Source: Phoronis australis (taxonomy: Eukaryota > Animalia > Phoronida). From it: DNA of 64,000 nucleotides. The stretch spans positions 379,831-443,830 of the forward strand of contig NMRA01000175.1 in the NCBI GenBank assembly GCA_002633005.1, read 5' to 3'. Position 1 is the stretch's first letter. Each line of letters begins with the position of its first letter. The position numbers and the translations under genes were made by a program. The notes beneath the pieces are model-generated. The model was not told the DNA's origin and did no database searches. It saw nothing but the letters and a program-made list of their open reading frames with translations. Below, one piece after another: positions 1,809 through 4,900 of the stretch.

Positions 1809-1918
1809 GTGCCAAGACCTACCCGACTGCAAAGTTGTTGCTAGTAGCATAACTTTTGTTGACGATCCGTGTGGTGAAACAAAAAAATACCTCAGAGTTG
1901 ACTATCGTTGCGCGTTAG
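1809..1918 (+). CDS. ADGRL: Lectin (SUEL/RBL) C-half exon, variant [37 protein letters not shown]
   Basis: Pyrimidine tract + aag|G at 1808/1809; G|gtaagc at 1918/1919; 110 nt, phase 2 to 1; DPC and KYL motifs. Confidence 0.9.
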
Positions 1919-4900
1919 GTAAGCCCAATTGCTTGCTGAAACATGTTCTGGCTCTGTTGTTTGAAACACAGTCGCATAACTACCAAATTACCCCAAATTC
2001 TCTTTAGGAAAGCATGCCTTCCAAGATCGACAATCCTCCAATCATTCTTTCTTTCTTTACCTTTCTTGTAGTGTCCCCTGTTCATTTCTTGACCTTTTAC
2101 CTTTGACTTTTCACAATTTCTTTGCTTGGGTATCCAGCTGTACTGGACAGCATATCTGCGTTGTGGAAGCTAGCAGCGCACTCTTTGGGAATCCTTGCGA
2201 CGGGACTCTAAAATATCTGGAGGTCGAATATCAGTGTATCATAGGTAAGGGGAGGTGTGGCATGATTCGTCTAGCGCTACGGTAAAGTTACCCGAGTTGC
2301 ATGTAGCGAGACGTCGGAGAAAGTTGGCACCCTATTATCGCTGCCCATGAAATTACTAACGCAGAGAAATGTTTGTCCTGTTTAGCTGCTTTGTGATTTA
2401 ACAACTAGATTTTTGGGGTCTGAAGTCAAATAAGCATGTGCTTTCCATGTATCGAAAAGTATTGAATGAAACTGACTTTGTGCATGAGGCTGCATGTCTT
2501 CAAGGGGGCCGTTACATTTTTGTGAAGTTGTAGTTGGTCAATTGGGCATTTTCTTTGTCAAAGTAAGCAAAATATGCCAAGTTGACCAAATAGTCTTAAA
2601 AAAGGTGATGTTCCCCGAAACTATCTTGTTGGTACGTCATTGGTGTGGACTTGAAAAATCTCTATTTAATACCATTTTGACAAAATGTTGTGCATTGTTT
2701 TGTCCCTGTTGCAAGGTTTTTGCACAACTTTGTTAAATCCGATTGTTGCACATTGTATTTTTCATATCAAACATTTAAGAAACAAAAAGTCATGATGAAA
2801 TTTGAGAAAATTTTAGCAGTTTGCAACGTGTTAAAATTCTATCATGTTGCATGAAAACGAGCATTTGATAAAATTATCAACTTTCAGTTTAGTTAATACT
2901 TAAAAATTGTTTTCAGATACGGTATTTTTTCATCAAACTGGCTTGGAAATATCAACCAGAAACACTTTAATTACCTGGTCTGCACGCCACCTGTTGGCCA
3001 CATCATGTGACCCAATACAAGTCTGAAAAGATTTTTGCCCTGACCGGGACTCAAAATCAAGACCTTTGGCTAAACATGCATCTGAAATCTGTATTATTCA
3101 GGTTTCTCTATATGAAAAATCAATCAAAAAGTGCCTCTGGTATCCCGAGACAATTGATCTAAAAATTTTCTTTACTGGACACGGCATGAAGTCCCTGTTG
3201 TAACGCAGAACATCATTGAGCATATACAAGAAGTGACTAAACTCTGAGGAATCACAGGGACGGTCAGCTTTTGTCCTCTTATAAACTTTGCCAGCTCCGT
3301 CACGGCTAGTCTCTCAATTCCTACTGAATGTTGAAACCATTGCTTTCATGCCAACTCCAGTTTGATGGGATTTATTAGCTTATATTTTCTAGATTTAGCA
3401 TTTAAGCAGTCCTTAAAGATGAAGTGCTGCTTTAAGTGATTTTGTGGAAAGTCGTATCAACAAGGTGTGTTTGTGCAGAGGGTCAATTTGATGTTGGCTA
3501 GCTTATATAGTCTAACTAACTAACATGCTGAATATTTTCTTAACTTTCGCTCTTTATGACCACTCTCATTCAAAGCTAACCTAGTTTGTTCATTCTGTGT
3601 ATCAAGTCAGTCAACCATGATGCTTTGTTGTAGTTCAGCAATACTGGCTCAGATTAGTGCATGCTGTTCTGCTACACTGAGTCTAGTGGTTTTGAGAGAT
3701 ATTGCAGTACCTAGTTTAGCTCAACTGACTGTCATAAAATGATACAGGTTTTGCTGAGCCAGATGTCCTTTTCACAATTTAGGTGTTAAGCTGTACTGAC
3801 TCCGATGTAATGAATAGAGTGGGTTGTATTTAACAACACAGAAAGTCATCTTGAGATATTGCAGTAATTCAGCTGTAGTGTCTCAGGTGTGCTGTGCATG
3901 TAGTTCAATGCATGAGGCTCGATCTTTAGCCAGTCTTGCCTGCCTTCTCTCTCTAGGTGCAATGACAAGCTGCAATGTTCCGTTAGGGCTTCTAACACCT
4001 TCCTTAATGGCGATCCGTGCAGAGGCACTCCCAAGTATTTGGAAGTTAGATATAAATGTAAAGCAGGTAAGATTTTAACCAATAAGTTTAATAACTTTCA
4101 TTGATCTTTTCATTTCTCTTTCTACAACATTCTCTCTGGAGTTTTGCTCCCATGAACTAATTTATTTGAATACCAACGTGGATTCACAAAAAGTTCTAAG
4201 TTTTCAGTATTTTCCTCCCCCCGTTGTGGAGCAACTGTCTTCATTAGTATATATGTCTGACTCGAGATGTATTCTTTCTTTTGCCTTGTCTGCTCTGTAT
4301 TAGCATGTAGACAGTAACTGATCTGTAGCATTGACTAATAGCCTGTTTTGTTTTCTTTCTGTGGTTTGAGTTTGTTGCCTTGTGTCAACTGTTCTGCTTT
4401 AATGTAACAGTTGTAATTTTCTTTTGTTACAAAAATTTGTTTCTTAAATTTAAGTCTAGTTTAACGAGTGTATAGTATATTATTCTTCATTTTGAGTTGT
4501 CGTTTTAACAAGACATTTTCAGATTTCCTGTACTCATTAATATTTCTTTGTGATGTATAACATTTCTTCTAGTGACATGTGCATGGAGGGTTCATAAAGA
4601 TTGTCACTTGATTTCATAAAAGCCTTTCTTTTCCACAGTAGACAAAGATAAACCCAAGGGCAAGACCACTTTGTCCATGACAACAGAACTTACAACACTG
4701 CAAATGACAACACCGCAAACGACAACACCGCAAACGACAACACCGCAAACGACAACACCACAAACGACAACACCGCAAACAACAACACCGCAAATGACAA
4801 CACCGCAAACGACAACACCGCAAATGACAACAACACAATTGACTACTGAACAAACTACACAAAAACAAACAACAGCACCTGGTGAGATAACACGATTTCG

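Follow-up and report, generated by a model that had tools for sequence, protein, structure and literature searches.

Probable mutually exclusive exons for half of the lectin domain in a latrophilin gene of Phoronis australis

Results

We analyzed a 64,000-nucleotide stretch of the Phoronis australis genome (contig NMRA01000175.1; the whole stretch is called the window here). It contains what is probably a cluster of mutually exclusive exons in an invertebrate latrophilin gene, in which A, B or, likely, C is spliced in to give receptors that differ in the back third of the lectin domain. Positions of the exons and of the remaining gene are given in Table 1. Statements credited to cited papers refer to the accessible parts of those sources.

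Table 1. Features of the latrophilin-type gene in the window
Feature	Position	Strand	Evidence
Alternative exon A, lectin C-half, 110 nt	1809..1918	+	Pfam SUEL 47-80; upstream exon-A-9901 contig in X1
Alternative exon B, lectin C-half, 107 nt	2138..2244	+	Pfam SUEL 47-80; junction reads in X4 and X2
Alternative exon C, lectin C-half, 110 nt	3957..4066	+	Pfam SUEL 47-80; exon-confined sense depth in X4
Introns of the cluster, TGCATG-rich	1500..4638	+	8 sense copies versus a shuffle mean of 1.3
Thr/Gln-rich mucin-stalk exon, predicted optional, 1797 nt, 3n	4639..6435	+	AG/GTAAGT, no in-frame stop
36-nt micro-exon, predicted optional, 3n	8123..8158	+	AG/GTAAGT
Common downstream exon with HRM domain	9901..10214	+	Pfam HRM; loose ends behind A and B
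Remainder of latrophilin-type adhesion GPCR gene (GAIN, 7TM, cytoplasmic tail)	~11062..32854 (approximate)	+	Pfam, open reading frames

Three homologous exons encode the second half of a lectin domain

Exons A, B, and C have AG acceptors and GTAAG donors, and a recheck in the sequence reproduced the coordinates, lengths, and splice sites given in a preliminary description of this DNA. Exon A is entered in phase 2 and left in phase 1. All three peptides score above the cutoff for PF02140 (SUEL_Lectin) over model positions 47 to 80 of 80, with E values of 4.4e-08 (A), 3.4e-09 (B), and 4.7e-11 (C, the best score). Identical residues number 16/36 between A and B, 16/36 between A and C, and 18/36 between B and C (about 44 to 51%). 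Exon C has an intact frame and splice sites and keeps all four cysteines.

A profile of the C-halves of relatives, run against the six frames of the window, returned exactly A, B, and C (E values of 6e-16 to 3e-10), with the next match at an E value of 0.39. No lectin N-half was found in the window with a profile of 57 N-halves (best E value, 0.33; a Capitella model used as a control gave 1.7e-26). Because the window holds no N-half and the C-half profile matches only these three exons, we reject, as the preliminary description had also done, the idea that they are parts of complete lectin domains in tandem. The count of three applies within the window; the constant upstream exon lies beyond its edge, where further variants may also occur.

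Each of A, B, and C by itself keeps the reading frame into the exons at 4639 and 9901. When all three are skipped, the computed product ends at codon 5 of the exon that follows; with any two or all three included, the stop falls between codons 62 and 83. The frameshift proposed earlier for joining two exons or skipping all of them is thus confirmed in each case.

The host gene is a latrophilin

Downstream of the cluster, the HRM domain scored above the Pfam cutoff, as did the 7tm_2 domain at 16365 to 16619 and 22992 to 23156, a GAIN match at 13183 to 13419 fell below it (E = 7.6e-05), and a long open frame extends to 32854. The named top matches of the 7TM exon were ADGRL/latrophilin-like proteins at 67 to 80% identity, the best being latrophilins of invertebrates (Capitella, 80%; Owenia and bivalves, 76%). 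The gene therefore combines the features of the latrophilins (ADGRL/Cirl/LAT), namely, a SUEL/RBL lectin, an HRM domain, a 7TM region, and latrophilin homologues; its lectin is identified by Pfam for the C-half and by RNA loose ends alone for the end of the N-half. The gene's own protein was not among the 23 candidates from a protein search with the HRM exon, and a search with exon C returned only 2 unrelated amphioxus lectins.

The exon at 4639 to 6435 contains 15-nt tandem arrays and would lengthen the region from the lectin to the HRM domain by a mucin stalk of 599 residues, with the 36-nt micro-exon sitting in the stalk. At about 22330 to 22427, a possible small exon with plausible splice sites would place a Ser/Lys-rich insert between two 7TM exons, in what reads as the third intracellular loop region. 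Elsewhere, open frames on the minus strand at 53634 to 57160 resemble a broken, putative LINE-type retroelement with endonuclease and reverse transcriptase pieces, and interspersed repeats at 1 to 600 and 2975 to 3035 stand out by a very high read depth and numerous loose ends.

RNA joins exons A and B separately to the same neighbors

Exon use was followed in four runs: X1, a contig set presumed to be RNA, and X2 to X4, raw RNA from a single study, each read to about one-fifth. In X1, one contig (depth, 74.5) covers no part of positions 1560 to 2960 other than exon A, and its loose ends belong to an upstream exon outside the window and to the start of the exon at 9901. In X4, four reads run from this same upstream exon into B, and in X2, three reads join B to the exon at 9901, which brings the total junction support to one contig and seven reads. 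The first 30 bases of the 9901 exon form the loose ends behind both A and B. The letters before A and before B come from one exon that reads as the end of a lectin N-half (..VKER/C and ..VKES/C, with the slash at the joint), and this boundary is the same as in relatives. Both junctions seen downstream of A and B skip the 4639-6435 exon and the 8123-8158 micro-exon; the stalk length may therefore be a second large splice switch.

These joints (upstream exon-A-9901, upstream exon-B, and B-9901) mean that A and B are each used alone between the same neighbors, and we consider their exclusive use almost certain. No A-B, A-C, or B-C joint was listed at a depth of 1 to 8 and a threshold of at least 3 reads, conditions under which rare double inclusion would escape. 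The X1 contig differs from exon A at two sites, both synonymous third positions, which lends weak support to selection.

For exon C, no junction reads were seen in the runs read. Its sense depth in X4 was 2.81 in its own bin and 0 in both flanking bins; in X2, it reached 8.17 with some intronic signal alongside. Unspliced intronic reads occurred in X2 and X3 at a depth similar to that of exons, and all exon reads ran in the direction expected of sense RNA from a stranded library. Exon C is probably a working third option. The preliminary description had claimed mutually exclusive use for all three exons. Junction reads uphold this for A and B, but for C there is exon-confined coverage and no junction. 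Of the junctions that it had named, those from the upstream exon were found to 1809 and 2138 and, in the reads covered, not to 3957; toward 4639, 8123, and 9901, both A and B proceed to 9901 and skip the other two in the junctions seen.

The same half is swapped in relatives

Relatives were taken from 30 of the 85 clusters found by a search with the 7TM exon, picked mostly for having many members; for clusters of more than 15 members, part of the members were covered and counts read as "at least." Pooling two Mytilus clusters gave 29 sets with 254 proteins, all from automatic gene models. Among the 202 of these 254 listed proteins with a recognizable C-half, none had two C-halves. Alternative C-halves appeared in 17 of the 29 sets, spanning six phyla: two classes in 16 sets and three in Mytilus (species pooled). 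The remaining 12 sets had a single class among the members listed. The swap is present in a brachiopod, a nemertean, molluscs, echinoderms, a hemichordate, and beetles, and it starts at the same cysteine behind an identical N-half, with 42 to 67% identity between classes. Example isoform pairs are Lingula X2/X3, Mya X1/X2, Acanthaster X1/X3, Ptychodera X1/X2, and Aethina X2/X3. In Liolophura, the second half is carried by a model without an N-half. The only vertebrate set (Electrophorus) had one C-half in all eight isoforms that include it.

No single species had three C-half forms among the members listed of the 29 sets. The minor Mytilus C-halves (P0213 and P0215) come from different species and are 67% identical, while the major forms make up one class. 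The minor forms may be orthologues or paralogues, and Mytilus may also have three exons. In the Mya isoform X4 (P0146), the N-half exon is apparently read in another frame and joined to a downstream exon, like a skip-all transcript. A Capitella model (P0003) has the N-half and lacks the C-half, and therefore a cluster in Capitella may have been missed by gene prediction.

A tree of 48 C-halves was built from 35 columns, and 6 of its 45 inner branches were well supported. One insect class groups with myriapods (95/92), and one bivalve class spans three genera (95/82), which supports distinct classes that would be old among arthropods as well as among bivalves. Grouping A, B, and C in one clade, as expected from a lineage-specific origin, was not rejected (p-AU, 0.487). 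With only 35 columns, the tree fits one ancient duplication as well as several independent ones. A representative protein search (33 matches) contained no recognizable nematode LAT-1.

Sugar pocket positions map into the swapped half

In the rhamnose-binding lectin CSL3, the sugar site includes N74, D79, G83, and K86, together with the N-half pocket residues E7 and Y27 (PMC3269628). The first four map into the swapped half, where the corresponding residues are S/D/E/K in A, S/N/G/K in B, and N/D/G/K in C. Exon C thus keeps all four C-half pocket positions, and A and B each depart from them; the mapping covers the C-half only, with E7 and Y27 falling outside the window. The G83 position says little because this residue contacts the sugar through its main chain (PMC3269628).

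The named protein contacts fall elsewhere. The hot spot for TOL-1, LAT-1 F69 (bioRxiv 10.1101/2023.05.04.539414), and the LPHN3 contacts for TEN2, C36, R44, D49, C66, and D67 (PMC7195488), all lie in the constant N-half. The swapped piece had been called the ligand-binding half of the domain; this is right for the sugar pocket loop but not for the named TOL-1 and TEN2 contacts. An N-glycan of TEN2 inserts into the sugar pocket of LPHN3 (PMC7195488). As the pocket loop is swapped, the named protein contacts are constant, and the TEN2 glycan enters the pocket, the swap most likely tunes glycan-assisted partner binding. For mouse latrophilin-1, the affinity for rhamnose is low (Kd, 1.8 mM), and the authors of that study question whether its ligand is a sugar; they also give the pocket lysine a structural role (PMC2430599). 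We see an even chance that the isoforms bind differently.

Choice of exon

In worms, introns shorter than 40 nt block exon joining (PMC4165533). Since the A-B intron (219 nt) is far longer than these, exclusion is presumably regulated. Phase incompatibility had been put forward as the basis of exclusivity; it does shift the frame of wrong products, but it does not prevent the joining itself, and a 219-nt intron is of ordinary length. The cluster introns are rich in TGCATG, which we take to be an RBFOX-type element: none of 500 shuffles reached 8 copies, 18 other tiles of the same size held 0 to 4, and there is 1 antisense copy. The region was chosen after the motif had been seen. Of 80 inverted repeats, listed with no shuffle control, the 25 longest showed no docking-site/selector pairing that recurs with several exons. 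The earlier label of a "Dscam-like switch" therefore overstates the case, the inverted repeats showing no docking-site structure and the window holding three variants only.

Alternative explanations

It is unlikely that only A and B work and that C is a recent or decaying duplicate lying in unspliced RNA. This would agree with the lack of a junction read for C, with the absence of a single species with three halves among the members listed of the 29 sets, and with a single A, B, and C clade not being rejected. However, the frame and splice sites of C are intact, and its Pfam score is the best of the three; the exon is only 44 to 51% identical to A and B, yet all four cysteines are kept; and a filled C bin between two empty flanks, as in X4, is a rare outcome for 151-nt unspliced reads. 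Tandem SUEL domains do occur in other proteins, so one could picture the exons co-included as tandem lectin domains with hidden N-half exons. We give this practically no weight: the window contains no N-half, the junction reads skip the other exons, and co-inclusions reach a stop. For A and B, tandem co-inclusion is ruled out by the junctions that use each alone.

A stronger rival, which we still hold to be rather improbable, accepts exclusive use of all three exons and takes the isoforms as near-equivalent, kept by drift, split expression, folding, surface delivery, or an mRNA level set by decay. The position of the named protein-ligand contacts in the constant half, the 12 of 29 sets showing one half (among members listed), and the structural role of the pocket lysine (PMC2430599) are all in its favor. 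On the other hand, distinct classes have been kept for long, as judged from the insect-myriapod group and the three-genus bivalve group, and the worm pair is controlled by a neuron-specific splicing factor (PMC3627589). We hold a mutually exclusive cluster that gives three receptor versions to be the probable explanation.

Discussion

In the mechanism that we propose, the constant upstream exon, seen joined to A or B and likely joined to C, would lead through one of them to the HRM exon. This would give three receptor versions, identical in the lectin domain except for its back third. Cell-type-specific factors of the RBFOX/CELF type may choose the exon, as UNC-75 does for lat-1, and nonsense-mediated decay would act as a backstop that clears products with several exons or none. 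The half with the sugar pocket is predicted to tune, by cell type, the binding of glycans on partner proteins, and the constant half would keep the core protein contacts. Glycan tuning is the most likely role because the swapped piece carries the sugar-pocket loop.

The closest precedent is in Caenorhabditis elegans, in which lat-1 exons 3a (107 nt) and 3b (113 nt) are homologous mutually exclusive exons validated by RT-PCR; they are 45.9% identical, 112 nt apart, 3n+2 in length, and partly dependent on nonsense-mediated decay (PMC4165533). When UNC-75, a neuronal CELF protein, is lost, usage shifts by 25.6 points from 3A to 3B (PMC3627589). Provided that translation begins in the short first exon, the lat-1 exon coordinates (PMC11540312, supplement) place the start of exon 3 somewhere from codon 80 to codon 113; phase 2 entry at codon 99-100 would equal the boundary of A, B, and C. 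The LAT-1 lectin domain covers T32 to P136 (bioRxiv 10.1101/2023.05.04.539414), and its C-half aligns with our three exons. By this arithmetic of coordinates, as distinct from sequence comparison, 3a/3b is very likely the same switch. Both cases involve a latrophilin gene with tandem homologous exons, 3n+2 lengths, and a short intervening intron, but the worm has two exons against three here. The worm papers give the event in tables and, in the parts accessible, leave the domain unnamed (PMC4165533 and PMC3627589).

Invertebrate latrophilin/Cirl pairs in the databases likewise have two forms per species versus the three exons here. The preliminary description knew of no such array in latrophilins; the lat-1 pair and the swap in 17 of 29 isoform sets now supply one precedent. 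Vertebrate ADGRL1-3 share the domain and the boundary sequence with the Phoronis gene, and splicing of a mini-exon beside the lectin domain tunes teneurin affinity (PMC13108381). That event, already known, adds a short insert behind the domain, unlike the half-domain swap described here.

A closer working model than Dscam is FGFR IIIb/IIIc. In that system, a choice between homologous, mutually exclusive exons exchanges one part of an extracellular domain. Dscam, as described in PMC4165533, makes a choice of the same kind. Both differ from A/B/C in fold, and here there are three options, no docking/selector pairing was found, and ligand switching is a prediction only.

The two-way kind of switch is already known, being validated in C. 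elegans and present in gene catalogues. New here are an array of three exons and a distribution that takes in seven other phyla, six of them through database isoforms and the nematodes through the literature. A lectin half-domain swap is unmentioned in the accessible parts of three reviews (PMC6629964, PMC13197933, and PMC6422961) and of PMC13108381, PMC12255766, and PMC12193088. In the literature searched, with subscription papers mostly outside its scope, we found no description of the swap as a change of the lectin domain or across phyla, nor of a three-exon array or a bilaterian-wide spread.

We tentatively suggest, as a possibility that is more doubtful than the cluster itself, that cell-type-specific, mutually exclusive splicing of the sugar-pocket half of latrophilin was already present in the last common ancestor of bilaterians. 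The switch would have been kept in worms, arthropods, lophotrochozoans, echinoderms, and hemichordates and lost in vertebrates, and it would have come to three exons here; it would set which glycosylated partner (teneurin, Toll/LRR, or DSL) is bound. Whether invertebrate latrophilins bind teneurin, and what the ligand of the lectin domain is, are debated (PMC6422961), and the LAT-1/TOL-1 structure, as far as the accessible text goes, is of isoform a only (bioRxiv 10.1101/2023.05.04.539414). If the suggestion is true, single-isoform binding studies of invertebrate latrophilins would have overlooked a second receptor. The three-exon array indicates that the cluster can expand beyond a pair, and if the half-domain swap is general in invertebrates, each claim of a ligand would need an isoform label.
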